A stretch of DNA of 62,572 nucleotides from the NCBI GenBank assembly GCA_964431675.1, contig CAYSKR010000110.1, forward strand, positions 1-62,572, given 5' to 3'. Made by a program: the position numbers and the translations under genes. Within the stretch, counting starts at the first letter, position 1; the number at the start of each line of letters is the position of its first letter. The stretch comes from an uncultured Myxococcales bacterium (GTDB lineage: Bacteria; Myxococcota_A; Polyangia; Fen-1088). Shown here piece by piece: positions 19,945 to 61,221 of this stretch. Under the pieces are notes generated by a model. That model was not told where the DNA came from. It was given only the letters and a program-made list of their open reading frames with translations, and ran no database searches.

Positions 19945-20898
19945 TCAAGCAGTGGCGGGCAGGCCGAATCGGCGCGCGAAGTCTTCGATGGTTCGCCCGA
20001 CGCCATCTTCCAGCGACACCGAAGGCGTCCAGTTCAAGATCGCTTTTGCCCGAGTTCCGTCGGGGTTGCGCCGAACCGGGTCGTCCTTGGGCAAGGGTGC
20101 ATGAATGATCGGCGACTGCGATCGGCACAAGCGCTGCACCAGCTCGGCCAGCTCCAGCATCGTCGACTCGCGCGGATTTCCCAGGTTGATCGGTTCGAAG
20201 CCGTGGTCACTTGCCATCAGGCGCACGAATCCTTCAATCAGATCGCTCACGTAGCAGAACGACCGCGTCTGTTTACCGTTGCCAAACACCGTCATCGGTT
20301 GGCCCCGCAGCGCCGCCACCACGAAACTCGACACCACTCGGCCGTCGTTCTCGTGCATCCGCGGACCGAAGGTGTTGAAGATCCGAGCGATGCGCACCTC
20401 GACGCCAAACTGGGTCGCGTAAGCCACCGCCAGCGCCTCCGCGCAACGTTTGCCCTCGTCGTAGCAGGAGCGAGGCCCAATGGGGTTGACGTTGCCCCAG
20501 TAGGTTTCTCGCTGTGGATGCTCGAGCGGATCGCCGTAGACCTCCGACGTGGACGCCAGCAGCACGCGCGCCTTCGCCTCGCGCGCAATTTCCAGCACGT
20601 TGAGCGTCCCCTCGACGGCAGTCCGGATGGTGCGGACGGGGTTGCGCTGGTAGTGGATCGGCGAGGCCGGGCAAGCCAGGTGGTAGATTTCGTCAACCTC
20701 CATCGTCAGCCGATCCTGGACGTCGTGCCGCACCAGCTCGAAATGCGGATGACCAAGCAGATGCTCGATGTTGGCGCGCGAGCCGGTGAAGAAATTGTCG
20801 AGCGCGACGACCTCATGCCCGTCGGCAACGAGGCGGTCGCACAGGTGAGATCCGAGAAACCCCGCGCCGCCCGTGACCAGCACGCGCTGGCGCCTCAA
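19945..20898 (-). CDS. UDP-glucuronate decarboxylase (UDP-xylose synthase-like) SDR
   Basis: [38 protein letters not shown], and YDEGKR (YxxxK). Confidence 0.85.
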
Positions 20899-21911
20899 GC
20901 GCGTGCTCCCAGCGTGACCGGAGCGCCGTCGTTTACCAGCGATCTGGCCCCGGCTTCAAGCACGCGCACCACGCGAAGCGCCGAAGCACCGCTGGCGCGG
21001 GGTGTTTTCCCGGTCGCAATCGCCGCAATGAAATCTTTGCACTCGAGATCGAGCGGCTCGACCATCGGCACTCGCGGGATGTAGATGTCCCCATTCCGAA
21101 TCGACAGAAACTGGGCAAAATCAGTGAATCCGGACGGTGGTTCAAAGCCCTTGTCGTATACCCGCAGCTTCTCCACCGGGTGGACGTCGTCGAATTCAAC
21201 CATCTTCTGCGACCCCACGATGGTGAGCCGACGCTCCTTGCGCGGGTCCAGCCAGGACAAATGAATCTGCGCCATGACGCCGCTGTGAAAGCGCAGGTTG
21301 ACGAACACCACGTCTTCCACGCCTTTTTGCAGGTAGGCACCGCCCCGCGCACTGACCGACTCGGGCTCGTCATCGAGCAGGTGCAGGATCATCGACACGT
21401 CATGGGGGGCGAGGCTCCACATCGCGTTCTCGTCGGGACGCACCTTCCCCAGGTTCACCCGCAGCGCGTACAGGTACAGGACACGCCCGAGCTCACCGCT
21501 CTTGACCATGGTCGCCAAACGTTCCATCGCCGGGTGGTACAGCATCAGGTGGCCCACCATCAGGGTGCGCTTTGCCTCGGTCGCTGCGGCCACCACCGAC
21601 TCCGCGTCCGCCGCCGTCAGCGCCAGCGGCTTTTCCACCAGCACGTGTTTTCCGGCCTTGAGCGCCTTGCACGCTTGTTCGGCGTGCGCGATCGCCGGCG
21701 TTGCCAGCACGACGGCATCGACGTCAGCGCGCGCCAACGCCTCGTCCAGGGTCTTTCCCAACAGCGCACGCGGTGCGAGTCCAGCAGCCCGTTGCAAGGC
21801 TTCGTCGGATGGGTCACAGACCATCGTCAGGGTTGCGCCCTCGATCCGGCCAAACGCGCGCACGTGGTTGATGCCCCACGCTCCTGCTCCGATGACGGCA
21901 ACCCGAACCAT
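20895..21911 (-). CDS. Gfo/Idh/MocA-family sugar-nucleotide oxidoreductase (WbpB-like)
   Basis: [20 protein letters not shown]..., EKPLALT. 4-nt overlap with the downstream decarboxylase gene. Confidence 0.85.
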
Positions 21912-21917
21912 GTTCTG

Positions 21918-23006
21918 CTAGCCTGGCCCGCGATAAAATGCGGCGATCTGCTCCACCACGTGCGCCTGCTGCTCGGCGCGCAACTCGGGATAAATCGGCA
22001 AGGCCAGTGCCTCACGCGCAGCCGCCTCGCTGTGCGGGAACGCCCCTTCCTTGTAACCCAGCTCAGCGAAACAGGGCTGCTGGTGGAACGACAGCGGGTA
22101 ATAGACTTCGGTCGAAACACCCTGCTTGCCCAGATGAGCCCGCAGGGCGTCGCGCCGGGGCGCGCGCACCACGAACTGGTTGTAGATGTGTTCGGGCACG
22201 TCCCCCGGCAAGCGAAACTCCGCCGGGATGCCCGGCGCGCTTGCGAACAGCTCCCGGTAACGGCCCGCGTTTGCCCGTCGGCCCGCCGTCCAGGCCGGCA
22301 AGCGCGGCAGCTTGACCCGCAAGATCGCCGCCTGGATGGAATCGAGACGGAAGTTTCCTCCCACCGCGTGGTGGATGTATTTCGGTCGCGAGCCATGGGT
22401 CCGCAACAGGACGACCCGGTCGGCGAAGGCATCGTCGTTCGTACACAAAGCGCCGCCGTCGCCAAAGCAGCCCAGGTTCTTCGACGGAAAAAAAGACAGG
22501 CAGCTCGCGACGCCAGAAACCTTGCCCGCACCAATCGACTGCGCCGAGTCCTCGATGATCGGAACGGTGACCTTCGGCAACGTCGCCGGCCGACCGTACA
22601 GATGCACCGGAATGACCGCCTTGGTCCTGGTGCCACATGCGGCTGCCGCAGCGCCCGGATCGAGGTTGAACGAATTTGCCTCGATGTCGGCAAACACGGG
22701 CCGCGCCCCGAGGCGGGCAATGCATCCCGCCGTCGCATAAAACGAGAACGGCGTCGTCACGACTTCATCGCCCTGGCCCACCCCGAGCGCCATCAACGCG
22801 ACCAGCAACGCGTCCGTCCCCGACGACAACCCGATGGCGTGGCGGACGCTCAAGAAGGCCGCCAGCTCCTTTTCGAACGCGGCGACGTCGGGCCCCAGGA
22901 TGAAACTCCCGGCGTCGACGACGCGCCCGATCGCCGCATCGATTTCGCCGCGCAGCGGCCCGTTGCAGGCGCCGAGGTCCAGCAACGGCACCCGCGCCGT
23001 ATTCAT
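21918..23006 (-). CDS. DegT/DnrJ/EryC1/StrS-family sugar aminotransferase (WbpE-like)
   Basis: ATG (plus cat 23004-23006) gives MNTARVPLLDLGACNGPLRGEIDAAI...GDEVVTTPFSFYAT...FFPSKNLG. The upstream 78 codons of ORF 21918..23240 overlap the acetyltransferase gene. Confidence 0.9.
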   Translation of the reverse strand: MNTARVPLLDLGACNGPLRGEIDAAIGRVVDAGSFILGPDVAAFEKELAAFLSVRHAIGLSSGTDALLVALMALGVGQGDEVVTTPFSFYATAGCIARLGARPVFADIEANSFNLDPGAAAAACGTRTKAVIPVHLYGRPATLPKVTVPIIEDSAQSIGAGKVSGVASCLSFFPSKNLGCFGDGGALCTNDDAFADRVVLLRTHGSRPKYIHHAVGGNFRLDSIQAAILRVKLPRLPAWTAGRRANAGRYRELFASAPGIPAEFRLPGDVPEHIYNQFVVRAPRRDALRAHLGKQGVSTEVYYPLSFHQQPCFAELGYKEGAFPHSEAAAREALALPIYPELRAEQQAHVVEQIAAFYRGPG

Positions 23007-23590
23007 GCCCGGCCCCCATCGCGCAGCCGCAAGACCTCGCGGGCCCCATCCTTCCCCAGATCGTAACGGCACCCGCAATCCGCACAAACAAGTGTTCCGT
23101 CGCGCAGCCGCTCGCCGCACCGGCACATCCATCCGACGACCCGGCCAGGCACGCCCATCACCAGGCCGAACGCCGGTACGTCGCGCGTCACGACGGCACC
23201 CGCGCCAATGAACGCGTACTCGCCGATGCTCGTCCCGCACACCACCGTCGCGTTCGCTCCTATGGCGGCACCGCGGCCCACCCGCGTCGTCTTGTATTCA
23301 TCCTTGCGGATGATGAACGCGCGCGGATTGATCACGTTGGTGAACACTGCGGACGGCCCCACGAACACCTCATCGGCAAGCTCGACCGCATCGTAGAGCG
23401 ACACGTTGTTCTGAATCTTGCAGCCGTTGCCGACGATCGCCTTGGTGCCGACGAAGACATTCTGACCGAGCGAGCACCCGGTCCCGATCCGCGCCCCCGC
23501 CATCACGTGACAAAAGTGCCAGACCTTGGTTCCCGCACCGATCTCGCAGGGCTGGTCCACCACCGCCGTGGCATGCGCCCAGTGACTCAT
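23003..23590 (-). CDS. hexapeptide-repeat N-acetyltransferase, WbpD/WlbB-like, with C-terminal Cys-rich ribbon
   Basis: Hexapeptide repeats. C-terminus CRCG...CADCGC. 4-nt overlap with the aminotransferase gene. Confidence 0.85.
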   Translation of the reverse strand: MSHWAHATAVVDQPCEIGAGTKVWHFCHVMAGARIGTGCSLGQNVFVGTKAIVGNGCKIQNNVSLYDAVELADEVFVGPSAVFTNVINPRAFIIRKDEYKTTRVGRGAAIGANATVVCGTSIGEYAFIGAGAVVTRDVPAFGLVMGVPGRVVGWMCRCGERLRDGTLVCADCGCRYDLGKDGAREVLRLRDGGRA

Positions 23591-23609: not shown

Positions 23610-24218
23610 TCAAAAAATCCGCTCTTCGATCATCAGCATGTCGCCGGGAAGCACCACGACGTTGGCTTGCTTACCTTGGCTAATCTCCGCGACCCGGTAA
23701 GTCTGCGTCACCACCTTGCCCTGGACCTCGCGGCGCAGGATGACCGTGTTCTTGTCCGCAATCGGCGAAAAACCACCGGCGGCGGCGACGGCATCCACGA
23801 TGGTCATGTTGGGAAAGTACGGAATGGGGCCCGGCTTGTTGACCTGGCCCAAGACCGATACCTTGCGGCTGTTCCACTCGCGGACGATGATGGAAACCTG
23901 GGGTTTGCGCAGGTAGTCGCCTTGCAGCTTCTTGGTGATGAGTTCTTGCACCTCACCGCTCGACAGCCCAACGACGGAGAGACGCCCGGCGAACGGGTAA
24001 TCGACGGTGCCATCCGCCGCCACGCGGTACGATCCCGAAAACTCGCTTTCACCGAACACCCGCACGTCGAACACGTCTTCAACGCCGAGGCGCTCGTCGG
24101 TGGCTACCGCCAGCGGTGAAATCGGGCGCCCCGCGTCGCCGCGTTGATGACCGCATGAGGCGACCCAGATCGATGCCACGCCAACCAACAACATCGATCG
24201 CGTAAGCAATCTGATCAT
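23610..24218 (-). CDS. short outer-membrane polysaccharide export (OPX/Wza-like) lipoprotein
   Basis: ATG (cat 24216-24218) gives MIRLLTRSMLLVGVASIWVASCGH (lipobox). Poly_export-like YRVAADGTVDYPFAGRLSVVGLSSGEVQELI plus one SLBB-like segment. The protein ends ...LPGDMLMIEERIF with no C-terminal helix. Confidence 0.8.
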   Translation of the reverse strand: MIRLLTRSMLLVGVASIWVASCGHQRGDAGRPISPLAVATDERLGVEDVFDVRVFGESEFSGSYRVAADGTVDYPFAGRLSVVGLSSGEVQELITKKLQGDYLRKPQVSIIVREWNSRKVSVLGQVNKPGPIPYFPNMTIVDAVAAAGGFSPIADKNTVILRREVQGKVVTQTYRVAEISQGKQANVVVLPGDMLMIEERIF

Positions 24219-24228
24219 GCTGCACCGC

Positions 24229-25569
24229 CTAGTACGTGACACCCATGCGTGCAAAAATCTGATGCTTCGAATAGTCGGCACCGACGTCCAGCGGCAAGCT
24301 GCTGCCGTTCAACAGGAAAACATAGCCCGCGCCGGTATAGAACCACTGCTGGATGAAGTAGTCGGCGGACAAGCCGGCCTGCAAAAAATTGTCGTTGCGG
24401 GTGACGACCACGCCCTGATCTTTGTAGCCCTTGAACCGGCGGCTCTCGTAGCGAACGGTCCCCGAAAAAGAAACTCGCTGCGCGATCGATTGGCGCACGC
24501 TGAAGTAAGGTGTGTCCACGTCGTAAAAGTCGCCAAGAACCGAGTTGCGATACTCGTGACGATAGCCAATCCGCAACTCCGTCATCGGGGTGGGCTGGTA
24601 CCCAAGTTCCGCCAGGCCAGCCACGTTGCCGAAGCCTGAAGGATTGGCCGCGCCGCCTTGATAGAACGCGGCGGCATAGCCGGCCGCCAGGTTGACGCTG
24701 AGCTTGTTGGTCACAAGACCACGCAAACCAAGCAGCGCCTTGGAGGGATAGGATCCCTGCTTCGGCGTGAAGCTTGGGCTCATCTTGACGGCTGCCGGCG
24801 CATCCTTGAGGTAGCTGATCATGCCCTGCGATGCTTCCAGAAAGACGGCGGTGTTCGGGTACCACTTCCAGCTCAGGTCAGCTAGCAGCTCGTGCGCGAG
24901 GGAACTTGCGTACGTCAGGCTCGGATCCTCGAAATAATCGAGCAGATTCGAATAGCGCAGCGTGCCGTCGATGCGGCCGCCGCCCGGTGCCACCCGCAAC
25001 TCTGCGCCGACCAGGTTGGTATCCCGCACAATATTTCCATTGCCGCGCTCGTAGGGAGGATCCTGAACCCGCGTGAACGTGTCCATCAACTGAAACGACA
25101 ACTGCTGCCCGGACGAAAACTTGAGCGCCGCAGCGAGGTTCGGGTTGAACGCCCGCTGGGCCTTCACCGCCGCATCGTCGGACAGGTATTCGCGATACTG
25201 CAACAACGCGCGCAGGTTGTAGAAAATGGGCGGAATCCCGCCACTGCGGGTGCCGTTGGTCAGTTCGGCAAACGGGGTCACCCGCAACATCGGCGCCGCG
25301 GTGGGAGCGAGCTTCGAATAGAACACGTTCGAGTCGTAGCCTCCCTCGGCCCCAACACCCACGTGCAATAGACTCGTTTCGCTGAGGGAGACACCAGCCC
25401 GGCCCGGCCCAACCTGGACCGCATCGCGAGCGCGCAATGCCGCATCGCTGCCGATGTTGCTGAAGCCTGGACTGGACGCCAGACCTCCCCCGTTATCCGC
25501 CCGCGCGTTCGCCGCTGCAAGGAGTACCGCCGCCAGCGCGACGTAAGAAGCAGTAAAGCGGAAAGTCAT
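24229..25569 (-). CDS. outer-membrane beta-barrel protein (GltH/NfsH-like or Wzp-type porin partner of the OPX)
   Basis: ATG (cat 25567-25569) gives signal peptide MTFRFTASYVALAAVLLAAANARA. Alternating-hydrophobic beta pattern throughout. C-terminal ...FARMGVTY ends in an aromatic residue. Confidence 0.65.
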   Translation of the reverse strand: MTFRFTASYVALAAVLLAAANARADNGGGLASSPGFSNIGSDAALRARDAVQVGPGRAGVSLSETSLLHVGVGAEGGYDSNVFYSKLAPTAAPMLRVTPFAELTNGTRSGGIPPIFYNLRALLQYREYLSDDAAVKAQRAFNPNLAAALKFSSGQQLSFQLMDTFTRVQDPPYERGNGNIVRDTNLVGAELRVAPGGGRIDGTLRYSNLLDYFEDPSLTYASSLAHELLADLSWKWYPNTAVFLEASQGMISYLKDAPAAVKMSPSFTPKQGSYPSKALLGLRGLVTNKLSVNLAAGYAAAFYQGGAANPSGFGNVAGLAELGYQPTPMTELRIGYRHEYRNSVLGDFYDVDTPYFSVRQSIAQRVSFSGTVRYESRRFKGYKDQGVVVTRNDNFLQAGLSADYFIQQWFYTGAGYVFLLNGSSLPLDVGADYSKHQIFARMGVTY

Positions 25570-25657
25570 GTTGGGCAGGATGTCCTTGAATGCAGCGCGA
25601 CGGTGCGGGTGGGCTGGAAGCAGACTGACTGGCAAACTCTCTGTCCTCTACGGCTTG

Positions 25658-26302
25658 CTACTTGAAGGTACTCGCGAGCACCGGACGCGCGGTGCTGTCC
25701 GTTGTGGCGCCGGTTGTGGTGCTGCCCGTTTCGGATTTGGTCAAGTCCTGTTTCGTCATGTTCGAATCGCGCTCCATCGTACGCGTGGCCGCGCCGAGGT
25801 AGCTGGCCTCCGCGCCCGCGCACTTCTCGGCTTCCGCGTCGATAACCTGGGCCTTTTGGTTCAAAATCGTGACCCGCGTGTACTCGTGCAGGCAGTCCCC
25901 ATCGGCTTTCTTGGCCAACTCATCGTCATTGCGAGCCGCCGCAGCGGCTTTCCGGGCGGCCCCATCTTGCAGGGCAAGCAAGCCCTGATCGGTCATGTTC
26001 AGATTCGCCTTGGCCTCGGCTTGGTTGCCCTGGAGGCAGTTGATGCGAATGACGTCTTTCTCTTTTCGCGCCGACTCGAGCAGGGTGTCGACGTGGCGCA
26101 GCGTCGCTTCGATCTTCTGGCGGTAAATCTGGCACTGACTGATCATTTCGGCGGGACTGATCGTCGAACGCTGGGGCAACGACAAGCTAACGTCAGGCGG
26201 CGGTGCCTGCGTCGTGGTGCCTGGCGTCTGCGCCAGCGCGGTACCAATAGCGGTCGCCAGGGCGAAAATCGCCCCCAAGCTCGTTGTTGTCGCCTTGGAC
26301 AT
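25658..26302 (-). CDS. secreted coiled-coil protein with four Cys
   Basis: GGAGG RBS 8 nt upstream. Signal peptide MSKATTTSLGAIFALATAIGTALA. Heptad-like Ala/Lys/Glu-rich body. Confidence 0.6.
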   Translation of the reverse strand: MSKATTTSLGAIFALATAIGTALAQTPGTTTQAPPPDVSLSLPQRSTISPAEMISQCQIYRQKIEATLRHVDTLLESARKEKDVIRINCLQGNQAEAKANLNMTDQGLLALQDGAARKAAAAARNDDELAKKADGDCLHEYTRVTILNQKAQVIDAEAEKCAGAEASYLGAATRTMERDSNMTKQDLTKSETGSTTTGATTDSTARPVLASTFK

Positions 26303-26453
26303 AACTATCCTCCTCGCGCGTCGGTTGGTGGTGCATCGGTCGGCAGGAAAAGCTGCGACAGCACGCCGCTGAGCCTACAATCGGCGGCAATATAAGTGTA
26401 TGCAGCACGCTGTGTCAACAAGGCCACACGGGCATTTATGTCTTTGTGCGTTG

Positions 26454-27866
26454 TCACTGTGACGCCGTGAAAACAAAGGGGAAAGAGACCTCGACCGCGC
26501 CCCCGGAAGGAGCCGGGAAACGCCACCTGGCGACCAGGCCCTTGATGCAGCCTGAGACCTCTGAATCGCCCAGCGTGTCCTCTTCGATATCGACCCCAGA
26601 CACCGTTCCGGCCGGGGTAATGGTCCAATGGACCTTGATCTTGCCAGATAGGCTAGGGTTCCGCTTCAAGGCGCGCTCGTAGCAGGCCTTGATGGCACCC
26701 ATGCGCGCCCGGACTTCCTTGGACACGATGTTGGGGTCAAGCTCGCCGTCGACGGCCGGTGCCTCGTGCTTGACGATGCCCGATACGCGCCGCTCGGAGC
26801 CCTGGCCGGTGCCGCCTTCAGCGATGCCCGATCCGCCGCGCAGGCCACCGACGCTGGCGATCTTGCCGCTCCCTCCGGTGCCGGTCTTGACCCCGCGCAG
26901 CGTGTCGCCGCCGGTGGCCACGGTCAAGCCTCCTACCCCCTGGAACGCTTTCTCCTGATCGCGATCGACGTCGCCCTTGCCGAGCACGTCGGCGATCGAC
27001 CCGTCCTCACCCTTGGCACCCAGCAACTTGAGGATGCCGGTGTTCTTCACCGCCTCCACGAGACGGGCACGGCGCTCTGCCGCCGCCTTCTCCTTCTCTT
27101 CCTCGCGTTTCTTCTTGTCTTCCTCGGTCAGTTCTTTCTGTTCTTTCTTCGGCGCCGCCGCGACCGGCTTCTTCTTGTCTTCGCCTTTGGTGTCGTCCTT
27201 CTTCTCTTCCTTGGGCTTGGGCGGCTCGATCGCCTTCTTTTGCACGACCATCTTGATGAAGCGATCAGGGATTTCTTCGATGTCTGGTTTGCGTGGCCAA
27301 TCCACGCTGCGCAGGTAGATGACCATCACCAGGTGCATGGCGAACGACGTGGACGCGATCGCGGTGAAGAACCAGTCCATCTGGCCAGCGAAACTTCCGC
27401 GCACCGACGCCGGCAACTGCGGCCGCGGCTGCGGTGGCGGCGGCGTGACGAACTGAAACAAGATGGTGGTGTCGCCAACAACGATCTTGCCACGCGAGCG
27501 CTCGTCGAGCGCCAAGAGCCAGGCCGATCCCTGCTTCTTGATCTTGCCGGTCTGTTTGAGCTGGCCGAGGGTGATGACCTCGTTGCCCACGGCGATGCGC
27601 GCATCCATCGCGTCCGCGAAGTGCCCGACGTAGCCCTTCGGCGTCTCCTGGAAGAGCAGCCACTCGCGCGGCAGGTATTCAGTTGGGACGACGAACATGT
27701 TGCGTGCCGATTGCCCTACGGTGATGTTTTCGCGCTTGCGCACCAGGCGTTCCTCTACGATGCGCCCCCCTTGAATGACGCCAATGCGTAAAATCTTCTG
27801 CCGGGGAACAGCGCGAGCCGCTGTGCCTGCATGAGAGCTCTTGTTGCTTGCCTGTGGAGTCGCCAT
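26454..27866 (-). CDS. bitopic TonB-like protein, GltG/PglI (NfsG)-like: cytoplasmic FHA-like domain, one TM, Lys/Glu/Pro linker, AgmX/PglI-type C-terminal domain
   Basis: N-terminus ILRIGVIQGGRIVEERLVRKRENITVGQSARNMFVV. TM FFTAIASTSFAMHLVMVIYL. Linker KPKEEKKDDTKGEDKKKP. C-terminus ...IKACYERAL...GCIKGLVARWRFPAPSGGAVEVSFPFVF. Confidence 0.7.
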   Translation of the reverse strand: MATPQASNKSSHAGTAARAVPRQKILRIGVIQGGRIVEERLVRKRENITVGQSARNMFVVPTEYLPREWLLFQETPKGYVGHFADAMDARIAVGNEVITLGQLKQTGKIKKQGSAWLLALDERSRGKIVVGDTTILFQFVTPPPPQPRPQLPASVRGSFAGQMDWFFTAIASTSFAMHLVMVIYLRSVDWPRKPDIEEIPDRFIKMVVQKKAIEPPKPKEEKKDDTKGEDKKKPVAAAPKKEQKELTEEDKKKREEEKEKAAAERRARLVEAVKNTGILKLLGAKGEDGSIADVLGKGDVDRDQEKAFQGVGGLTVATGGDTLRGVKTGTGGSGKIASVGGLRGGSGIAEGGTGQGSERRVSGIVKHEAPAVDGELDPNIVSKEVRARMGAIKACYERALKRNPSLSGKIKVHWTITPAGTVSGVDIEEDTLGDSEVSGCIKGLVARWRFPAPSGGAVEVSFPFVFTASQ

Positions 27867-27888
27867 GGAAGGGGGGTCCTCTGCTGAG

Positions 27889-28290
27889 TTAGAACGGAGA
27901 TCGGGTGACGCTGTCCATGATCTTCGGGATGAAATCTTGCTTCAGATCCTGCCAGTCGTAGTTGATGCCGGACTTCTGAAGTACGTAGAAAGCTTCAGGT
28001 TTTTGAATCTTTCCTTCTATCGTGACCACGTCGGTGATCACATAGACCTTCTTGCCGCCTGCGCCGCGTTCGATCTTGACGCCGGTCGGTTTGGTATCGC
28101 CGCCTTGCTGCGCCGCGGCACCCGCAGGCTGGCCCGCCCCCACCGCAGGTGGCTTGGCTGCGGCTGACTTCTGCGCCTGGGCAGCAGGCAAGACCGATGC
28201 CGCGCCGAGCCAAAAACCAAGGCACGCAAACACCACCCGCGGCGCGGGATGACCTGGGAGTTTCCTCATTTGATCTCGCATGAGCTTCAT
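27889..28290 (-). CDS. small secreted protein in the GltF/NfsF position
   Basis: The start shares 1 nt with the upstream stop (TAATG). Hydrophobic signal segment VVFACLGFWLGAASVLPAAQA. Assigned by position and size only. Confidence 0.55.
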   Translation of the reverse strand: MKLMRDQMRKLPGHPAPRVVFACLGFWLGAASVLPAAQAQKSAAAKPPAVGAGQPAGAAAQQGGDTKPTGVKIERGAGGKKVYVITDVVTIEGKIQKPEAFYVLQKSGINYDWQDLKQDFIPKIMDSVTRSPF

Positions 28291-29291
28291 TACTTCAGCG
28301 GCAAAGGTGCGTCGGCCGCGGGTGTTGCCTTGGATGGTGAAAGGGCCGCGGGCGCGGCAGCGGATCCTGCCGCAGCCGCTGCGTCTTTGGCCGCCTTTTG
28401 TGCTGCGCGCGCCTTGTCGCGTTCGAGTTGCTTTTGCACGCGCTCGATGCGCTTCTGTTCCTTCTTGATCCCCTCGCCTGCCTCGGTGATGTACTGGTCG
28501 ACGGGATCCTTGTCGAGCGACTGCCCGGACGACTGCATCATCTGCTTGTAGCGCTGGAAGTAGGCAATCGCGGCGTTCATTTTGGCCGTCAGATCCATGT
28601 TCGGCATCTTGTCGGCGTCAAGGTACAAGATGCCCTGGTTGAACACGGCGTCGGCGTAGTTGGGGTAAAGCTGCAAGGCGTGCTGGTACGAGGCCAGCGC
28701 CTTGTCGTAGTCCTTGAGACCGCGGTAAGCGTCGCCGAGATTCAAATGGGCCTTGGCGAATCCCGGATGCAGCGACACCGATCTTTCCAGCAACGGGGTC
28801 GCCTCGCGGTAGTTCTTCGCTTCAAGGTACTGCGCCGCCAGGTTGTTCCACATGATCGCGTTCTCGGGCCGCGCTAGGGTGGCCTTCTTGAGCATCTCGA
28901 TCGCGCCCGGGCCGTTGCCTTTCTCGCGCTCCATGAACGCGAGCAACTGATACATATCGCCTCGCTCGGCGTCAGCGGCCTTGTTCGCCTGCATCATGTC
29001 CCACAAGGTTTTGACCCACTCGTACTTGTGCAGCTTGTAGTAGCCCTTGGCCATCAGGAGCATGGCGGGCGTGAAAGTTTCGTTCTTGGCCAGCGCCACC
29101 TTGGCCGCCGCGACCGTGCCCTCGTAGTTCCCGGCCTCATACTGTCGGCCAGCGGCGGCCGTCTCGTCGATGGGAATGACCTTGGGCGGCGGCTGGCGCT
29201 TCTTGCGCGCGGCATCCTGGGCATGCGCCGCCCCAACCCCGGAAAACCCGAGGGCAAAACCGATGAACAGCCACATTTTCATTGACTTCAC
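28290..29291 (-). CDS. secreted TPR-repeat protein, GltE/AglT (NfsE)-like
   Basis: Signal peptide MKSMKMWLFIGFALGFSGVGAAHA. Several TPR units (NNLAAQYLEAKNYREA, LNLGDAYRGLKDYDKALASYQHALQLYPNY). 4-nt overlap with the upstream gene. Confidence 0.72.
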   Translation of the reverse strand: MKSMKMWLFIGFALGFSGVGAAHAQDAARKKRQPPPKVIPIDETAAAGRQYEAGNYEGTVAAAKVALAKNETFTPAMLLMAKGYYKLHKYEWVKTLWDMMQANKAADAERGDMYQLLAFMEREKGNGPGAIEMLKKATLARPENAIMWNNLAAQYLEAKNYREATPLLERSVSLHPGFAKAHLNLGDAYRGLKDYDKALASYQHALQLYPNYADAVFNQGILYLDADKMPNMDLTAKMNAAIAYFQRYKQMMQSSGQSLDKDPVDQYITEAGEGIKKEQKRIERVQKQLERDKARAAQKAAKDAAAAAGSAAAPAALSPSKATPAADAPLPLK

Positions 29292-32200
29292 GGGTACTCC
29301 ACCCCGATGCGCTCGTCCTTTATATAGGGAAACTCGTCGGGCAAATACTTCGAAAGATTCTCACGCGCCTTCTTGACGTAGTCGTTGGTGACGCCAAGCT
29401 GGGCCGCTCTTTCAAGGGTGGCCTTCCATTCGGTCTTGGCCGTGTCTTCGATCGGCGTCACAAACTGATAGATGGCGTCCTTGTACTGCGTCAAAGCTTC
29501 GCCGCACAGACTTGGATCGGCGCGGCACGCCTTCTTATCGATCGACTTGACCTCGTCAGGGGGCGCGTCGGCTGCCTTGACCAGCTTCTGCGCGAACTCG
29601 TAGAAGATGTCGCCGCGGCGCAAAAACGAAGCCAGGGTCCAGGTGGCATCCTTGTAATCCCACACCCGCTTGTACTCTTCCTGCAGCGCTCTGGCCTCGG
29701 CGATGAAAGCATCAATGACCGCCTTGGCTTTCTTCGTCTCGGTTAGCCGCAGTTGCTTGGCCTTGAACACGTTGAACTTGTCGTCGAGCAGCAGGTACTC
29801 AGCCTTGGCCGCCGCAGCGGCCGCCGGCGTCGCGGGCGGCAGATGCCGCGCTAAAAACTCGTTGCGCACCTTCTGATAGGCGGCCAAAACGTCCTTGCGA
29901 TTGCGGCTCTGCTGCTCGGTGAGCGTCGCCTTCTTGAGGTAAGCGTCGATGACGTAGTCGCCGGCGTCCTGCGCTCCGGAATAGCGCCGGATGAGCTCAT
30001 CGAGACACTGGCGATACTTGCCGTAATCCTTGGCCTTCTCGTAGTCGTTGCAGGCGTTCATGTAGGCCTGCGCGGCATCCTTGGGCTTGTCGGCAACCGC
30101 GTCGGCGTACTGCTTGAAGAGCTGCGCGGCGCGCGGGTACTGCTGATCGTTGTCGACCAGGATCGCCGCCTTGCCGAGGGCCTCCTTGCGATGCTCGTTG
30201 CCGGTAAACTTTGGGTCGGTGGCGACCTTGGTGTAGTAGGCGACCGCCTTGTCGAACTCGAACGCGCGGCTGTAGTTGTTGGCCGCGTTCCAGGTGGCTT
30301 CCTTGCCCAGCGCCGTATCACCGTAGTCGCGCGCCAGACGCTCGTAGCACTTGGTGGCTTCCGCCGGCTGGAAGAGCTTTTCGTAGATGACGCACGCGTT
30401 GTTCAGGTTGTTGGGCGCGTCCTCTTCCTTCGGGCTCTCGTTGACCAGATCCATCAGGTCCAGCGCGAGGCTGGCATCAAGGCCCGAGGCGATTGCCTTG
30501 CTACCTGGGGCCGGAGCCACGCCCGGCTTGGTGGTCGCCACACCGCGCACGATGTCGATGCCGCCGGTGCCTTCCTTGCAACGGGCCACCTGCTTCGAGG
30601 TGCCTTTCTCTTCGTTCTCGATCTCGTTCTGCGCCGTCTGCGTGATCACGGTCGAGCGCACCGAGCTCTTGATCTGCTTGATGCGCGCGATGAACTCACC
30701 GCCGTTCTGCGACTTGGCACACGGCGATTCGCTGAACTGCTCGGCAATCGCCAGGAGTCGTCCGAGGGCACAGTCCTTTTGTTCAGCGTCGGGAACCAGG
30801 TAGTCGATGAAGTAGGTCTGCAGCAGCGACTGGTAAGCCGTGAGGCCCACGTCGGACTGCGTACCGCAATAGGTATCAGCCACCGACTGCAAGCGCTTCC
30901 GGCCCTCGGGCCAGTCCTTGTAGCGCAGCACCATGACGGCGGCCGCATACTTCATGCCGGGGACCTTCTCGTCCTTCAGGTTGGCGACGTACCAGTCGAG
31001 CGCGCCCAGGTACTTGGTGTAGATCTCGGGCAGCGCAATCGGCGTCACCGGTGGCTTGGTGTTCTTCTCGTCGGGGATCGGCGGATCCTCGAGCTGCTTC
31101 GCCACCTTCATCCGATCGATGATCGCCTCGTACGACTTGATGATCTGAAACGCCGCCGTGACCTGGTTCTTGTTGTCGAGGACCGAGTCACGGACCAGCG
31201 TGTAGGCCGCGATGGCCGCATCGAACTGGTCGGAGAAATACAGCGCGTCGGCGTAGAAGGCGGAAAAGTCATAAGCCTGCTTCGAGTTCGGATAGGCGAC
31301 CAGATACTTTTCGTAAAGCTCGCCAGCGTTCTTGTACAGGACTTTGCACTGCAAAAGCTTGCTCGTGTCCGACTGGTTCTTCTGCCACTGATCCTTGCAC
31401 CCCTGCGCCGCCGCATGCACGTTGGTGGCCGCGATCAGCAAGGCGTCCTCGGCCAGCTGCTGCGCCACCGCCAGGGCTTCGGGGTTGTCCTTGTTCTTGT
31501 CGAACCAGGCCGTGCCCTTGGTGTAGTTGCGCCCCAGCAGCTCGCGCTCTTTCGCTGCGGCTTCAAGATTGCGGTCGCGCTCGAACGCCTTGACGATCTT
31601 CTCCTGCACCTGGGGGGCTTCGATGTAGTATGGCCACTTCGCCAAAAGAGCGCGGTAAACGGCGATCGCCTCGGGGAACTTCGTCTGATCGAAGTAGATG
31701 TCGCCGAGGCGCTGGTAGACCTCGCGCACGTGCGGCTCGACCTCGCGGCCGGCGTAGAACTTTTCCATGCGAGCAAGGCCGGTCTCGGGGTCGGGCAGGG
31801 TGTCGCCGTCCCAGTCCGACTCGTTGAAGCTGATGCCCAGGTACTGCACCGCTTCGGGACGCAAATCAGAGCCGAATTTTTCGCCCGAACTCTTGCGCCC
31901 GTCGGCCCATTTCACCAGGCCATCGAATTCCTTGATGGCCTCGGAAAAGCGGTTGTCGCGGTAATACGACCACGCCAGCTTGTACAGCGCCTTGTCGTAA
32001 TAGGTCGAATCGGGAAACTCCAGCACCTTCCCGTAGGCACCGATGGCCAGGCCCAGCTCGGCGTTGTCGAAGTGCATCTCGCCCACCCGGGTCCATGCCT
32101 CGGCGAGAAACTTCGAATCCTTTTTTACAGGCACGCAATCCTTGTAAACCTCCGCCGAGGCGGAGCGCGACGCCAGCGCGCCACCCCGGGAAACCTGCGG

Positions 32201-32851
32201 CGGCGGCGGCGGATCGAGCGGCTTGTATCGATTCGAGCAAGTCATGGCGAGCAGCACCTGCTTGGCCTCGGCATCCTGGCCCATTTCGCCCAGGCAAAAG
32301 CCCAGCAAGTAGTACGCGGCGTCGAGCAATCGGTAATTCGGAAACTCGGTGAGCAGGCGGCGGTACAGGTCCACCGTGTTGGCGTAGTTGGGCCTGGGCG
32401 ATGGCGTCGTGGGCGGGGTCGGCGAATCGAGCGCCTTCTGGTACTCCTCCTGGATGGTGAGGAACTCGTCGGACGACTTCTCGTAATAAAGTTCCGCCAG
32501 CCGGAACATCGCGTCCGGGGTCCAGCGCCGATCATTGGGGTACCTGCGCAGGAACTGCTCGAACATCGCGATGGCGTCGAGCCGCCGCTCCCGCTCTTCC
32601 TTCTCATTCAAAGAAATCAGTGGCTCGTACTTGGACTTGATGCCCTTCATCTTGTCGATGTAGGCGCGACGAATGACCACGTTGGCGGCAGCCCGGTAGC
32701 CCTTCACCGCTTCGCTGAAGCGCGCCACGTCGTTGGCCATTTCCTCGAGCTGCTGCGGATCGAGCGTGGCGGGCGCGGAAGCGGCGTGAGCGAGGCTGGT
32801 CGCGATCATCCCGAGCGCACCGAACACAGCGGCGGGCGCGATGCGCGTCAC
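29288..32851 (-). CDS. large (1187 aa) secreted TPR-repeat protein, GltD/AgmU (NfsD)-like
   Basis: Signal peptide MTRIAPAAVFGALGMIATSLAHA. TPR-like helical repeats throughout. Size and position match AgmU-type proteins. 4-nt overlaps at both ends. Confidence 0.7.
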   Translation of the reverse strand: MTRIAPAAVFGALGMIATSLAHAASAPATLDPQQLEEMANDVARFSEAVKGYRAAANVVIRRAYIDKMKGIKSKYEPLISLNEKEERERRLDAIAMFEQFLRRYPNDRRWTPDAMFRLAELYYEKSSDEFLTIQEEYQKALDSPTPPTTPSPRPNYANTVDLYRRLLTEFPNYRLLDAAYYLLGFCLGEMGQDAEAKQVLLAMTCSNRYKPLDPPPPPQVSRGGALASRSASAEVYKDCVPVKKDSKFLAEAWTRVGEMHFDNAELGLAIGAYGKVLEFPDSTYYDKALYKLAWSYYRDNRFSEAIKEFDGLVKWADGRKSSGEKFGSDLRPEAVQYLGISFNESDWDGDTLPDPETGLARMEKFYAGREVEPHVREVYQRLGDIYFDQTKFPEAIAVYRALLAKWPYYIEAPQVQEKIVKAFERDRNLEAAAKERELLGRNYTKGTAWFDKNKDNPEALAVAQQLAEDALLIAATNVHAAAQGCKDQWQKNQSDTSKLLQCKVLYKNAGELYEKYLVAYPNSKQAYDFSAFYADALYFSDQFDAAIAAYTLVRDSVLDNKNQVTAAFQIIKSYEAIIDRMKVAKQLEDPPIPDEKNTKPPVTPIALPEIYTKYLGALDWYVANLKDEKVPGMKYAAAVMVLRYKDWPEGRKRLQSVADTYCGTQSDVGLTAYQSLLQTYFIDYLVPDAEQKDCALGRLLAIAEQFSESPCAKSQNGGEFIARIKQIKSSVRSTVITQTAQNEIENEEKGTSKQVARCKEGTGGIDIVRGVATTKPGVAPAPGSKAIASGLDASLALDLMDLVNESPKEEDAPNNLNNACVIYEKLFQPAEATKCYERLARDYGDTALGKEATWNAANNYSRAFEFDKAVAYYTKVATDPKFTGNEHRKEALGKAAILVDNDQQYPRAAQLFKQYADAVADKPKDAAQAYMNACNDYEKAKDYGKYRQCLDELIRRYSGAQDAGDYVIDAYLKKATLTEQQSRNRKDVLAAYQKVRNEFLARHLPPATPAAAAAAKAEYLLLDDKFNVFKAKQLRLTETKKAKAVIDAFIAEARALQEEYKRVWDYKDATWTLASFLRRGDIFYEFAQKLVKAADAPPDEVKSIDKKACRADPSLCGEALTQYKDAIYQFVTPIEDTAKTEWKATLERAAQLGVTNDYVKKARENLSKYLPDEFPYIKDERIGVEYP

Positions 32852-35199
32852 TTCTGGTCCTCCTCAAGCAAGGACTTGAAGTCGTCCTCGATCGACTTGA
32901 GCTCCAACTTTTGCATGTTGATGAGCTTCGACACCGCGCTGGTTTTTTGATCTTTGAGGCCCCACGACACGTCGATGAGGCCGACGTCGGACTGCACCAC
33001 CAGCTCGTAGAATCGGTCGCTGACCTTGGTGAGCATGGCGGACGCGAGCCCACCGCCGAGGCTCTGCGACTCGGACATGAGGCCACCGAGGCGCGCGGTG
33101 GCTTGCTGCAACTGCGCCTGCTCGATCACCATGCGCTCCTTGACCGAAACCAGGCGCTGATCGGCCGCGGCATCGATCCGGCCGTCAAATTCCGCCAGTT
33201 GCGTCTGCACGACATCGGCTCGTCGCAAGACCGAGGCCACCGCATCGAACTCACCCCGCGCACCCGACGGCAGACGCGGCTGCACTTTGGCGAGCTCTTC
33301 CAGCTCGGCCTTCATGAGGTCGGACAGCCGAAGCGTTGCCCTGCGCTCACCCGGGTCGGAACCAGACGTGGCTGCTTCCTGGGCGGTCACCTCGATCTCG
33401 CGCCGGACCTTCTCCAGCGCGGTCTGGGCGACCGCAATCTCGGTCCGCAGGTCGGCCACTGGCCCCTGCAAATCCTCCGGGCGAATCTTCTGCTCGGCCC
33501 GCGAGGTAACGTAGTACTGCTCGATGGCGATGAGTTCGGCTTCGAGCGAGCGGATAAGGACGTTGAGCTCCGACGCCTGGGCGTCGAATCCCGTCACCGC
33601 ACCGCGCACGTTCCGGTCTCTTTCCTTGAGTGCTGCGGCGGACATCGGCAAAGCCTGCGTCTGCTGTTCGAGCAGTGCCCGCTCGCTTGCGATGCGATCG
33701 ATGGCCAGCTTTTCCTCGGCGGACAGGTGCGAAGCCACGAGGCCCCGCAACCGGCCAGCAAAGCGGCCACGGATGTCCATGGTCTGGTTCAAGATTTCGA
33801 CCGAATCCGTGCGCGCATTCGACAGATCCGAAAAAAGGCCCGACCGGCCCACGCCCGTGACCGCGCGATCAAGACGATCCATGAGCTGCTCGGAAGCCCG
33901 CATGTCGCGCTTTATCTCGCTCACCTCCTCGACCAGCGCGAGCATGCGCTCCATCTCGACGTCGGGCTTGATCCACTTGGCCGCCGCCGGGGGCACAAAC
34001 GCCGCGATGTTGAACTTGTCGAGGTTCTTGCCGATCAGGTTCTCGAAGTATTTGGCGTCCGACTGCGACCGCACCTTCTGCTCGCCAACCTGCTTGAGCA
34101 GGGGCTCGAACTGGTCGCGCATCTCGCTGAAGTTGCCGTTGGCGACAAAGAAGTTGCCGAGGCGCAGGTTCAAGTTGCCCATGAGCAACCGAAGTTCCGG
34201 TGCCTGGGAACCGTTGGCGTCCTGGAGCAGCAGCAAGTCCAGGGCGCGGTATGCGCTCTTGAAGTCCTTTGCCTTGATCGCGTTCCACGCCGACTCGTAC
34301 ATGGACTCGGTGAAGTACTTGGAATCCCTGGGCACGGCCGCGTACGCATCCCGCGCCTTGTCGAACTGGCCGCGGTCGAAATACACCCGGCCAATGGCCA
34401 TGTGGGCCAGATCCTGAATTTCCTTTTCGTCGTCGCTGCGCGCCTGGATGCGCAGCACCATGTCGAACGCGGTGGCGGCGTCGGCCATTTCGCCCTGCTT
34501 GACCGAGATGGTGGCGATGAAATAGCGCGCCTGCATGTAATAGGGACTCGTCGGCGCGATGCCGCCGAACGAGGCCAGGGCCACGTCGAGCTTGCCGCGA
34601 AAATAACTGTATTTGCCGCGCACGTAGGGGACCGACGCCTCCAGTTTCTGCTGCGGCACCTTGTCGAGACGGCCGAGGTAGCCATCGACGTTGCCGTAGT
34701 CGTCGGTGCGCAGCGCGATCTCGACCAGGCGCTGCAGCGCCCGCTGCTCGGCCCGGGAACCGGTCTCCTTGGTAATCGCCTGCTCGAAGTAGCGCCGCGC
34801 CGAGTTCAGATCCTTGCCGAGAAAGCGCGCTTCGCCGAGGAGCAGAACCGCATCGTCAAACGCGCGCGAATTGGGATACTTCTCGATGACGTCGAGCAGC
34901 ATGATCGCTGCCTCGTCGTAGTTTTTTAGCTCGAACAACGTTTGCGCCGCGATCACGCGACGGTCGGCCACCAGCGGATCGGACTGCGCGGCCTGGTTGT
35001 CGCGGAACTCGGCGGCTATCTGCCGGACCCTGCCATCGAGTTCAAACAACTTCTTGTTGGCATCGTCGAAGTCGTCGGCCAGGGCCGCCGCAGATCCGAA
35101 CAGAACCACGCCCATGGCCAACGCAGCCGGGCGACCGCTCCGCGGTCTCGCCAGCCACGCGCCGCGCCGGTCGCGGATCGGATGCTCATCCTCGTGCAT
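32848..35199 (-). CDS. TPR plus long coiled-coil envelope protein in the GltC/NfsC position
   Basis: Hydrophobic N-terminal segment. TPR-like N-terminal half (AQTLFELKNYDEAAIMLLDVIEKYPNS...). The C-terminal roughly 350 aa is heptad-rich and Glu/Arg/Leu/Ala/Gln-rich. Confidence 0.65.
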   Translation of the reverse strand: MHEDEHPIRDRRGAWLARPRSGRPAALAMGVVLFGSAAALADDFDDANKKLFELDGRVRQIAAEFRDNQAAQSDPLVADRRVIAAQTLFELKNYDEAAIMLLDVIEKYPNSRAFDDAVLLLGEARFLGKDLNSARRYFEQAITKETGSRAEQRALQRLVEIALRTDDYGNVDGYLGRLDKVPQQKLEASVPYVRGKYSYFRGKLDVALASFGGIAPTSPYYMQARYFIATISVKQGEMADAATAFDMVLRIQARSDDEKEIQDLAHMAIGRVYFDRGQFDKARDAYAAVPRDSKYFTESMYESAWNAIKAKDFKSAYRALDLLLLQDANGSQAPELRLLMGNLNLRLGNFFVANGNFSEMRDQFEPLLKQVGEQKVRSQSDAKYFENLIGKNLDKFNIAAFVPPAAAKWIKPDVEMERMLALVEEVSEIKRDMRASEQLMDRLDRAVTGVGRSGLFSDLSNARTDSVEILNQTMDIRGRFAGRLRGLVASHLSAEEKLAIDRIASERALLEQQTQALPMSAAALKERDRNVRGAVTGFDAQASELNVLIRSLEAELIAIEQYYVTSRAEQKIRPEDLQGPVADLRTEIAVAQTALEKVRREIEVTAQEAATSGSDPGERRATLRLSDLMKAELEELAKVQPRLPSGARGEFDAVASVLRRADVVQTQLAEFDGRIDAAADQRLVSVKERMVIEQAQLQQATARLGGLMSESQSLGGGLASAMLTKVSDRFYELVVQSDVGLIDVSWGLKDQKTSAVSKLINMQKLELKSIEDDFKSLLEEDQK

Positions 35200-35205
35200 G
35201 CCCCG

Positions 35206-35919
35206 TCACTTCTTCGCCGCGGTGCCGCTGCCCTCCGGGTTCATCACGTTCACGCGAAACTGGATGTCCGGCTTCTCTTCCATGTTCGTGGTGATGCCGC
35301 CCTTTTCAAACCCGACGACCGTGACGACCGTCGCCTTGCCTTCGGCCGCGACGAAGGTGTTGCTGGCGCGCACGTTGAACTTGTAGCCCTTCAGGTAACT
35401 GAAAACCCCGAATCCGTTGCCCTGGTACTGCAAGCTCACGGAAAGCGAGTGCGATCCCTGCTGAATCGCGCCGTTGTAGATGTCGAACTCGCCCATGTCG
35501 GCGAGGTGCCCGCTGTCATCAGCCCGGCTGAAGATCTGAACCCCGTCGAGCGCGTAGACGGCCTTGATGAGCTTGAAGGTTCCGCTCATCTCGTTCTTGT
35601 GACGGATGATGCCCCGGGACGCGCCGATGTGGACGCCAAGGACCGTTTCCTTGAGCAGGTTGAGGCGCGCCTTGGTGCGAAAAACCTGCTCCTTGAGTTC
35701 GTTGACGTTGCGCTCAAGGGCCTTGAGCCGGACGTTGTAGCCGCCGCTATCGGCGGAACCTGCCGACGAAGCCGCCGGCGCGGCGAGCGGCGCGGCGGGC
35801 GGCACGGCGCTTGCGCCTTGAGCGAGCACCACCGCGGAAGGCATGGCGAACAACACCGCCGTGCCCAGAACAACGCTGCAAACACCCGTGAGAATTCGCC
35901 AAGTTGGAACGCGCGTCAT
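35206..35919 (-). CDS. secreted protein with short coiled coil and beta-rich domain (first gene of the string)
   Basis: GGGAG RBS. Signal peptide ...VVLGTAVLFAMPSAVVLAQG. Coiled segment NVRLKALERNVNELKEQVFRTKARLNLLKE, then a beta-strand pattern. Confidence 0.6.
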   Translation of the reverse strand: MTRVPTWRILTGVCSVVLGTAVLFAMPSAVVLAQGASAVPPAAPLAAPAASSAGSADSGGYNVRLKALERNVNELKEQVFRTKARLNLLKETVLGVHIGASRGIIRHKNEMSGTFKLIKAVYALDGVQIFSRADDSGHLADMGEFDIYNGAIQQGSHSLSVSLQYQGNGFGVFSYLKGYKFNVRASNTFVAAEGKATVVTVVGFEKGGITTNMEEKPDIQFRVNVMNPEGSGTAAKK

Positions 35920-61051: not shown

Positions 61052-61221
61052 CAGAGTGCCACTATAACCTGTACCCCAGAATCTGTGGCTGACCGCCTTG
61101 CAGGGGCTTCAGCTACTTACCGGTCGCTGCGGAACCCCTGGCAGTCGCGGAGTCGCCCCCGATGCATCCGTACTGCCGACCCCCTCCCAAGCAAGAAGGA
61201 TTAGTGATAAAATCCATACCA

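Follow-up and report, generated by a model that had tools for sequence, protein, structure and literature searches.

A conserved myxobacterial gene array joins a G4-type Glt paralogue to a putative Wzp/Wza polysaccharide translocon

Introduction

The gene array described here lies on a 62,572-nucleotide (nt) stretch of DNA from an uncultured Myxococcales bacterium (contig CAYSKR010000110.1), and its closest described relatives are the Glt and Nfs machineries of Myxococcus xanthus and the further Glt-like clusters of that organism. The whole stretch, hereafter the window, is a single contig, and the rest of the genome lies outside the data. Nine genes on its minus strand (23.6-35.9 kb) follow each other in the order X237-C-D-E-F-G-Y214-barrel-OPX, where C to G stand for genes resembling gltC to gltG, X237 and Y214 for genes coding for proteins of 237 and 214 amino acids (aa), and the last two for an outer-membrane beta-barrel and an OPX lipoprotein. 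In the Agl-Glt system (PMC11761067), GltD is a periplasmic pillar, GltG has a transmembrane helix (TMH), a forkhead-associated (FHA)-like domain, a disordered linker and a TonB-like end, GltF is a small bridge, and GltE and GltC are tetratricopeptide repeat (TPR) partners; the window array follows the same periplasmic logic. Agl-Glt also has an adhesin module (GltA/B/H/K-CglB), GltI, GltJ and an N-terminal FHA domain on GltG, whereas the window locus is without these.

Luciano et al. (2011, PMC3169522) listed as further Glt-like clusters of M. xanthus G3 (nfs), G4 (with the gltD homologue MXAN_1922) and G5 (MXAN_1327), and reported that G4 and G5 are of unknown function and that insertions in them have no effect on motility. 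G4 was described as five genes only, MXAN_1919-1923, coding for proteins of 447, 91, 490, 1111 and 809 aa, and the Haliangium genes Hoch_6494-6498 code for proteins of 823, 1202, 422, 120 and 490 aa (supplementary table of PMC3169522, in which the 'homologue of' column for G4 is apparently printed in reverse order). The Agl-Nfs machinery moves Exo polymer that is exported by the Wza-type ExoA/ExoB system (Wartel et al. 2013, PMC3858216). Work from two laboratories (PMC9603273, PMC9601211, PMC12819527) has described class-3 OPX proteins, which have PES and SLBB domains, no Wza_C helix and a length of about 200 aa, as partners of 18-stranded Wzp porins, and has assigned the pair WzaB/WzpB (MXAN_1915/1916) to the biosurfactant polysaccharide (BPS) pathway; in the view of both, MXAN_1915 is an orphan gene whose product acts together with a wzx/wzy/wzc cluster located far away. 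We found no mention of Wza or Wzp beside G4 in the Glt literature, and MXAN_1917-1924 were cited by Luciano et al. alone, in a coverage that extends to the Glt literature without the opinion article of Agrebi et al. (2015) on capsule-motility evolution. The array thus appears to be of a known but uncharacterised kind, and the linkage at the level of the whole array appears to be unreported.

Results

The window array corresponds to M. xanthus G4

Species-representative genomes were scanned with an alignment of D-like proteins that had been collected in a search of 1.84 billion representatives as the seed; the scan gave 80 loci, which together with three metagenomic contexts make up the 83 related loci considered here, and the nine window proteins were mapped onto each. 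The X237-C-D-E-F-G-Y214-barrel-OPX order recurred throughout the related loci, and the C-D-E-F-G order with a short G (about 450-490 aa) and a long C (about 780-820 aa) was seen in the window and the 83 loci. The sizes of the C to G proteins in the window (783, 1187, 333, 133 and 470 aa) fit those of the G4 and Haliangium clusters much better than those of the Glt proteins (GltC, 673 aa; GltE, 471 aa; GltG, 640 aa; GltH, 209 aa).

In the related locus of Myxococcus sp. MY1 (L081), consecutive open reading frames (ORFs) code for 159, 196, 240, 811, 1148, 593, 82, 443, 145, 215, 417 and 203 aa. The products of the first two are a Roadblock/LC7 protein (MglB) and a Ras-like GTPase (MglA), and that of the 145-aa ORF is a cyclic nucleoside monophosphate (cNMP)-binding protein. 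Since MglB is MXAN_1926 and MglA is MXAN_1925, the next ten genes of L081 should be MXAN_1924-1915, and their sizes agree with those published for MXAN_1923-1919, WzpB (about 421 aa) and WzaB (about 204 aa). All nine window proteins matched proteins of L081 or of other Myxococcaceae loci in the same order, and they account for nine of the ten L081 genes that follow mglBA. As judged from sequence and gene order, these comparisons show that the window cluster is the Polyangia orthologue of M. xanthus G4, extended on both sides, and that it corresponds to MXAN_1924-1919 and MXAN_1917-1915. G4 and Hoch_6494-6498 share with the window not only the C-D-E-F-G order, similar protein sizes and the short G, but also the flanking X237, Y214, barrel and OPX genes. 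The Myxococcus G4 locus differs in having mglBA upstream and the cNMP-binding gene between G and Y214, whereas the window has obg upstream and no cNMP gene; in addition, E is shorter in the window than in G4, and sugar-nucleotide genes directly follow the array.

The initial annotation, made from the sequence alone, had matched the C-, E-, F- and G-like proteins with their Glt/Nfs namesakes. The distant homology and the C-D-E-F-G order held, but orthology to glt or nfs did not, for the scores fell far short of the NCBIfam equivalog cut-offs for GltG (174 of 650 bits), GltE (55 of 225), GltC (42 of 450) and GltF, also named CglF (16 of 90). The Myxococcus G4 proteins gave the same sub-threshold pattern, and the low scores taken together with this shared pattern argue for grouping the window cluster with G4 rather than with glt or nfs. 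Pfam and NCBIfam searches found no GltA/B/H/K, GltI or GltJ-type proteins in the locus, the GltJ matches in the window covering only the C-terminal domain of that protein. The same searches detected no NfsA/B/H-type outer-membrane proteins in the locus, and the placement of the cluster away from nfs rests on synteny. The 237-aa head gene and the 214-aa 'extra' gene, taken at first as departures from the Glt order, were both conserved members of the array across the related loci.

The Glt-like genes are linked to a porin module across related loci

Linkage was counted in the 49 species-level loci that extend at least 4 kb beyond G. In 32 of these, G is followed by Y214, barrel and OPX; five have Y214 and the barrel, two have Y214 only, and the remaining ten have none of the three. 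The linkage spans Myxococcaceae, with mglBA upstream, Polyangia, with L21-L27-obg upstream as in the window, and a metagenome-assembled genome (MAG) of the Bradymonadaceae (L077), and the array order is kept at 25-40% protein identity and in the presence of unrelated downstream genes. We conclude that the linkage is strong but not obligatory.

Several related loci showed features of their own. In Myxococcia the array lies immediately downstream of mglB-mglA (L081:5590-7393 and about 25 other Myxococcaceae loci, for example L062, L069 and L079), and in L081 and L069 the X237-homologue ORF, counted from its first possible start, overlaps the mglA stop by 4 nt. L001 (18644-21581), L003, L027, L030 and L035 keep the barrel and have no OPX gene before hexapeptide, DegT and GFO genes; at the OPX spot, L001 carries an AAA_14/DUF4143 gene and a transposase. 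In L017, L018, L019, L040 and L041, a subclade with no Y214, barrel or OPX after G, the C-, D- and E-like regions (at about 7.7-14 kb in each locus) are covered by one ORF of about 2000-2100 aa that resembles a fusion.

The barrel and OPX proteins resemble a Wzp/Wza pair

The barrel protein matched the Pfam family BBP2_2 (26.8 bits; threshold, 23.7) and, weakly, the EpsL model (E = 5.8e-5), and its AlphaFold2 (AF2) model, built from a 50-sequence alignment, had 18 strands (pLDDT 86.8, pTM 0.82). Over its full length it was 25% identical to the Myxococcus protein in the position of WzpB (MXAN_1916). Foldseek comparison of the model returned generic outer-membrane barrels only (TonB-dependent receptors, OmpF and OmpG; TM 0.35-0.47) and not specifically PgaA, and sequence comparisons of the barrel and of G with the PDB gave only noise or weak matches to TonB C-terminal domains (E 0.1-1). 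On the strength of the strand count, the Pfam match, the pairing with OPX and the synteny, the barrel is predicted to be a Wzp-type polysaccharide porin. This replaces the earlier assignment as an 'H-like' barrel of the GltH/NfsH type, for GltH has 209 aa, whereas the window barrel has 446 aa, 18 strands, a BBP2_2 match and an OPX partner. The length of 446 aa given in the initial annotation is obtained when translation starts at an internal ATG (position 25569), ahead of a signal peptide; the full ORF, from a TTG codon, codes for 468 aa.

The array had also been taken to end at the barrel, so that the class-3 OPX gene directly downstream, whose start lies about 10 nt past the barrel stop codon, was overlooked. 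Its 223-aa ORF contains a Poly_export domain (residues 59-133; E = 2.9e-20) and an SLBB domain (140-217; E = 9.8e-11) and nothing beyond them, with no Wza_C helix; a lipobox-like VASC follows M22. The protein matched the NCBIfam PEP-CTERM export, EpsE and EpsY models and was 40% identical to its Myxococcus orthologue. The predicted domain content and length of the OPX protein, and the adjacent barrel with 18 modelled strands, agree with the definition of class-3 OPX/Wzp pairs, in which the barrel has at least 16 and typically 18 strands. WzpB/WzaB likewise consist of a short OPX protein encoded about 10 nt after an 18-stranded barrel of about 420-450 aa, in the orthologous position. They differ from the window pair in that the barrels are just 25% identical and in that the window neighbours point to a sugar of the 2,3-diacetamido type instead of proven ManNAcA.

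Y214 is predicted to be exported and has two conserved cysteines; no Pfam or NCBIfam match was obtained for it and no family was recognisable. Each of the 37 loci with a barrel gene also had Y214. The G-Y214 gap of 151 nt is the sole sizeable gap in the array, and it contains the sigma-70-like sequence TTGACA-18-TATATT, the only promoter-like match in 13.5 kb, a count that is not significant by itself. Of 14 related loci, 10 had a match to TTGAC[AT]-N16-19-TAnAnT in the corresponding gap, amid flanking sequence that was not conserved. This candidate promoter suggests that the array comprises two transcription units and that the porin module may also be expressed alone.

The G-like protein has the topology of an energy transducer

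The G-like protein has one hydrophobic segment (residues 165-185) and a Lys/Glu-rich linker (22 Lys, 16 Glu and 6 Pro per 90 residues). Residues 26-469 aligned with positions 204-648 of the NCBIfam GltG model (E = 4.5e-51), and the C-terminal domain (376-466) matched the AgmX/PglI (TonB-like) model NF033768 well above the cut-off (106.6 against 40 bits), in support of a true but distant relationship to GltG. The match to the canonical TonB_C model TIGR01352 was weak (E = 0.003). The single transmembrane segment, the charged linker and the TonB-C-like end described in the initial annotation were therefore all found, but the FHA-like N-terminus was seen only indirectly, through the alignment of the central FHA region of GltG, and Pfam detected no FHA domain there.

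In the map of GltG (PMC11761067), an N-terminal FHA domain (1-114) binds GltI, and a central FHA domain (190-329), which precedes the TMH, docks on the AglR pentamer; according to the structural model in that paper, AglR5QS is the docking site of the TMH together with the central FHA domain, and GltD is that of the TonB-like C-terminal domain. From the alignment, the G-like protein is predicted to keep the membrane-proximal FHA-like domain and to be without the N-terminal FHA domain of GltG. The shortness of the G-like protein, which had been noticed at the outset (470 against 640 aa), is explained by the absence of this GltI-binding domain; the E-like protein was likewise shorter than GltE (333 against 471 aa), as had been supposed. 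G shares with the TonB and TolA transducers its topology (a transmembrane anchor and a charged linker) and a TonB-like C-terminal domain, but it differs from TonB-ExbBD and TolA-TolQR in its weak match to canonical TonB_C and in that it is not known to have a TonB-box partner.

Similar domains were encoded elsewhere in the window. An FHA and DUF4388 protein (47582-48571, minus strand) matched positions 22-127 of the GltG model (57 bits), within the N-terminal FHA region that the G-like protein is without, probably through generic FHA similarity. Tandem genes at 61162-61797 and 61811-62428 (plus strand) code for proteins of 211 and 205 aa, each of which ends in an AgmX/PglI (GltG/GltJ-type, TonB-like) domain scoring above the cut-off.

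The scaffold proteins

Many database homologues, far beyond chance, were found for every protein of the array, and all array proteins except G have signal-peptide-like N-termini. Pfam matches confirmed the TPR repeats noted at first in the 783-, 1187- and 333-aa proteins. The C-like protein is predicted to be exported, has its TPR matches between residues 67 and 340, and matched the GltC model at E = 4e-11; its C-terminal half is long and probably helical, and syntenic homologues were present in the 83 loci. The D-like protein, also predicted to be exported, had homologues of 60-74% identity in many Polyangia MAGs and fell to 29-30% identity with its Myxococcaceae orthologues in the same array; at E ≤ 1e-3 it matched 2792 representative clusters, and its relatives are unlabelled. 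NCBIfam returned no Glt-type match for D and only the TPR model YbgF. A Tol-Pal/CpoB reading of the YbgF matches was rejected, since the matches fall on TPR repeats only and TolB and Pal genes are absent.

The E-like protein has a type-I signal peptide, no lipobox cysteine and TPR matches, and it matched the GltE model at E = 6.6e-15. In the F-like protein the N-terminal part is variable and of low complexity, and about 55 C-terminal residues are conserved; its match to the CglF model was weak (E = 0.0098), that of the Myxococcus F orthologue was 8.8e-6, and the gene was syntenic in nearly all related loci. X237 has an N-terminal signal or anchor helix, an Ala/Pro-rich linker, a long helix (residues 57-92) and a beta domain of about nine strands, with a predicted fold of low confidence (AF2 model, pLDDT 61). 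There were 2238 X237 homologues, the named ones all labelled 'hypothetical'; across Myxococcota they are 44-82% identical and always encoded directly upstream of C. X237 had no Pfam or NCBIfam match, and Foldseek comparison of its model with the PDB yielded no convincing hit (best E 0.027, TM about 0.1). The absence of a family match, the variable N-terminus and a model that has a beta-sandwich-like domain after the helix led us to reject both a GltA/B-type barrel and an ExbD-like protein as identities for X237.

Motor genes occur within the array in eight related loci

In L042 (15206-17183), L053 (15606-17895) and L077 (15098-17074), Pfam identified one MotA_ExbB and two ExbD genes, an AglRQS-type set, in the interval between F and G. 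With tblastn, motor genes were also found between F and G in L038, L044 and L073 and in part in L050 and L080, which brings the number of such loci to eight. L042, L053, L073 and L077 also have Y214, barrel and OPX, so that scaffold, motor, porin and OPX genes occur in a single array. Luciano et al. described an ancestral 'core complex' (GltC-D-E-x-AglR-Q-S-GltG) from Geobacter and gammaproteobacteria, in which the motor genes stand just before G, as they do in these four loci. Compared with the core complex, the window is without in-line motor genes, which were lost or relocated, and adds X237, F, Y214, porin and OPX.

Discussion

Possible function of the array

The identity of the array as a G4 paralogue joined to a Wzp/Wza translocon follows from the comparisons above; from them we infer that the array probably specifies a motor-coupled periplasmic scaffold for polysaccharide export or polymer handling, a reading that we favour with moderate confidence. 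This proposal draws on the deep linkage, the in-line motor genes, the structural model of GltG, GltD and AglR, and the Agl-Nfs precedent. A proton motor of the MotA/ExbB-ExbD2 (AglRQS) type, whose genes stand between F and G in some related arrays and would lie elsewhere in the genome of the window bacterium, would engage the TMH and the juxtamembrane FHA-like domain of G. The charged linker of G would cross the periplasm, and its TonB-like end would dock on the D pillar, as modelled for GltG and GltD; the pillar would also carry E, C and F, as modelled for the Glt counterparts. Where Glt has the adhesin module GltA/B/H/K, the scaffold would meet Y214 and the Wzp-Wza translocon, and the machine could position, gate or energise the export of an acidic amino-sugar polysaccharide or handle the polymer after export, in parallel with the handling by Agl-Nfs of the Exo polymer that ExoA/ExoB export. 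The promoter before Y214 would create two transcription units and allow the porin module to be expressed independently as well. As in this proposal, Agl-Nfs (PMC3858216) ties a C-D-E-F-G complex to a polymer exported by Wza/Wzp proteins and contacts a TolQR-like motor through G. The two systems differ in that Agl-Nfs has NfsA/B/H and is encoded apart from the exo genes, whereas in the window the porin and OPX genes belong to the same array and no A/B/H-type proteins were detected.

Several observations weigh against this proposal. The 62.6-kb window contains no MotA/ExbB or ExbD gene, nor did it yield a Wzx, Wzy or Wzc gene. The association with the porin module is incomplete (ten of the 49 loci without barrel and OPX after G, five with a barrel and no OPX), and the conserved internal promoter permits independent expression of that module. 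For neither X237 nor Y214 could a family or fold be recognised (Pfam and NCBIfam for both, Foldseek for X237). Finally, a polar insertion in MXAN_1922 left gliding and spreading on hard and soft agar wild-type-looking (PMC3169522), whereas mutants of the BPS pathway, wzaB among them, had a severe spreading defect on soft agar, so that BPS export in the laboratory probably does not require G4.

The main rival to the favoured reading is that the two sets of genes are neighbours only: C-D-E-F-G with X237 would have a separate envelope role, such as Tol-like integrity or protein or lipid transport, and Y214-Wzp-Wza would be an independent exporter. The promoter before Y214, the loci without the porin module or OPX, the MXAN_1922 insertion without the spreading defect of BPS-pathway mutants, and the treatment of MXAN_1915 as an orphan by the BPS laboratories all point in this direction. 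We nevertheless consider mere adjacency rather unlikely, because it is kept at 25-40% identity in three classes with differing upstream (mglBA or obg) and downstream genes, because motor, Glt-like, porin and OPX genes are combined in single loci, and because Nfs, the nearest characterised paralogue, works on a polymer exported by Wza/Wzp proteins. A lesser rival is a passive scaffold, in which C, D and E would guide polymer to the Wzp barrel without a motor, as a split version of BcsC, PgaA or AlgK-AlgE, and G would be just an anchor. Those exporters do share a TPR scaffold and a polysaccharide barrel with the array, in which these are separate polypeptides. Consistent with such a scaffold are the three large TPR proteins beside an 18-stranded barrel, the relation of the Wzp barrel to PgaA by fold recognition in the literature, the frequent automatic annotation of D homologues as 'cellulose synthase operon protein C', the weak, TPR-level matches of Myxococcus orthologues to PgaA and BcsC models, and the lack of motor genes in the window. 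The retention in G of the transmembrane segment, the juxtamembrane domain (modelled on the AglR pentamer in GltG) and the TonB-like C-terminal domain, together with the MotA/ExbB-ExbD2 genes embedded in eight related arrays, makes it improbable that the scaffold is passive.

Still less can be said for a true orthologue of the Glt gliding or Nfs spore-coat machinery. The C-D-E-F-G order and the protein architectures are the same, and the nfs genes likewise form one cluster; however, the scores miss the equivalog cut-offs by a factor of 4 to 10, the locus has no GltA/B/H/K, GltI or GltJ-type proteins, G is without the GltI-binding FHA domain, the barrel is of the Wzp and not the GltH type, and motility of M. 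xanthus does not depend on the orthologous cluster, which is distinct from nfs. Synteny with G4 largely refutes this reading, which we regard as very improbable. Returning to the motor-coupled scaffold, one could envisage, more tentatively, that G4-type complexes are proton-motor-driven accessories of Wzx/Wzy export, which open the porin or pull or distribute the polymer, and that a single array X-C-D-E-F-R-Q-S-G-Y-Wzp-Wza is near-ancestral to Glt and Nfs; this is a possibility to which we give less than even weight.

G4 has been without an assigned function since 2011, and wzpB/wzaB have been taken as orphans; the window and the 83 related loci join both in one conserved array. Whether a Glt-like, motor-coupled scaffold serves a class-3 OPX/porin translocon thereby becomes testable in M. 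xanthus, which is genetically tractable. The question also matters for how outer-membrane polysaccharide porins are opened or energised, and for the proposal that gliding motility descends from a system that handled polysaccharides. The window itself adds a further member of a widespread, uncharacterised myxobacterial system rather than a new gliding or sporulation machine.

Organisation of the array and its neighbourhood

The ORFs of the initial annotation were all present on the minus strand at the sizes given there (237, 783, 1187, 333, 133, 470 and 214 aa; Table 1). The gaps from X237 through the barrel ORF are 6, -4, -4, -1, 22, 151 and 22 nt, which indicates operon-like packing, and the GC content at third codon positions (0.75-0.84) is level with that of neighbouring housekeeping genes.

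Table 1. Positions in the window of the array genes, the candidate internal promoter and the adjoining sugar-nucleotide genes
Feature	Position	Strand	Remark
X237 head gene	35206-35919	-	237 aa; corresponds to MXAN_1924
C-like TPR protein	32848-35199	-	783 aa; corresponds to MXAN_1923 (809 aa)
D-like TPR 'pillar'	29288-32851	-	1187 aa; corresponds to MXAN_1922
E-like TPR protein	28290-29291	-	333 aa; corresponds to MXAN_1921
F-like small exported protein (predicted)	27889-28290	-	133 aa; corresponds to MXAN_1920
G-like bitopic inner-membrane protein (predicted)	26454-27866	-	470 aa; corresponds to MXAN_1919 (447 aa)
Sigma-70-like promoter TTGACA-18-TATATT (candidate)	26389-26418	-	upstream of Y214
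Y214 exported protein (predicted)	25658-26302	-	214 aa; corresponds to MXAN_1917
18-stranded Wzp-type porin (predicted)	24229-25569 (ORF to 25635)	-	corresponds to WzpB/MXAN_1916
Class-3 OPX lipoprotein (predicted)	23610-24218 (ORF to 24281)	-	about 202 aa; corresponds to WzaB/MXAN_1915
Four sugar-nucleotide genes	19945-23590	-	downstream of OPX, same strand

The four sugar-nucleotide genes code for a hexapeptide acetyltransferase, a DegT aminotransferase, a GFO/MocA oxidoreductase (best match, UDP-GlcNAc 3-dehydrogenase) and an SDR epimerase/dehydratase. This set resembles WbpD/E/B, which we take to be typical of 2,3-diacetamido-sugar synthesis. The hexapeptide/DegT/GFO trio also follows the array in L001, L003, L027, L030 and L035, and genes for a Wzy_C-TPR protein and a GT4 protein directly follow OPX in L002, L029 and L055. 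Some 10 kb from the WbpD/E/B-like set, the window carries a second pair of hexapeptide acetyltransferase and GFO/MocA genes (10710-12328, minus strand), and proteins of about 650 aa encoded at 13650-15587 and 49472-51427 bear a weak likeness to putative glycosyltransferases of the LA_3751/3752 type.

A PilZ-domain protein is encoded next to the sugar-nucleotide genes (19079-19483, plus strand), and in Myxococcaceae the cNMP-binding protein gene is inserted between the G-like gene and Y214 (L081:16770-17207); the two proteins hint at second-messenger control. Beside hisD, the window also carries a lone gene of the SctV/FlhA export-gate family (39603-41615, plus strand; 749 bits, above the SctV cut-off) with no other type III secretion or flagellar genes nearby, and a gene of this family has the same placement in the related contigs L001 and L003.

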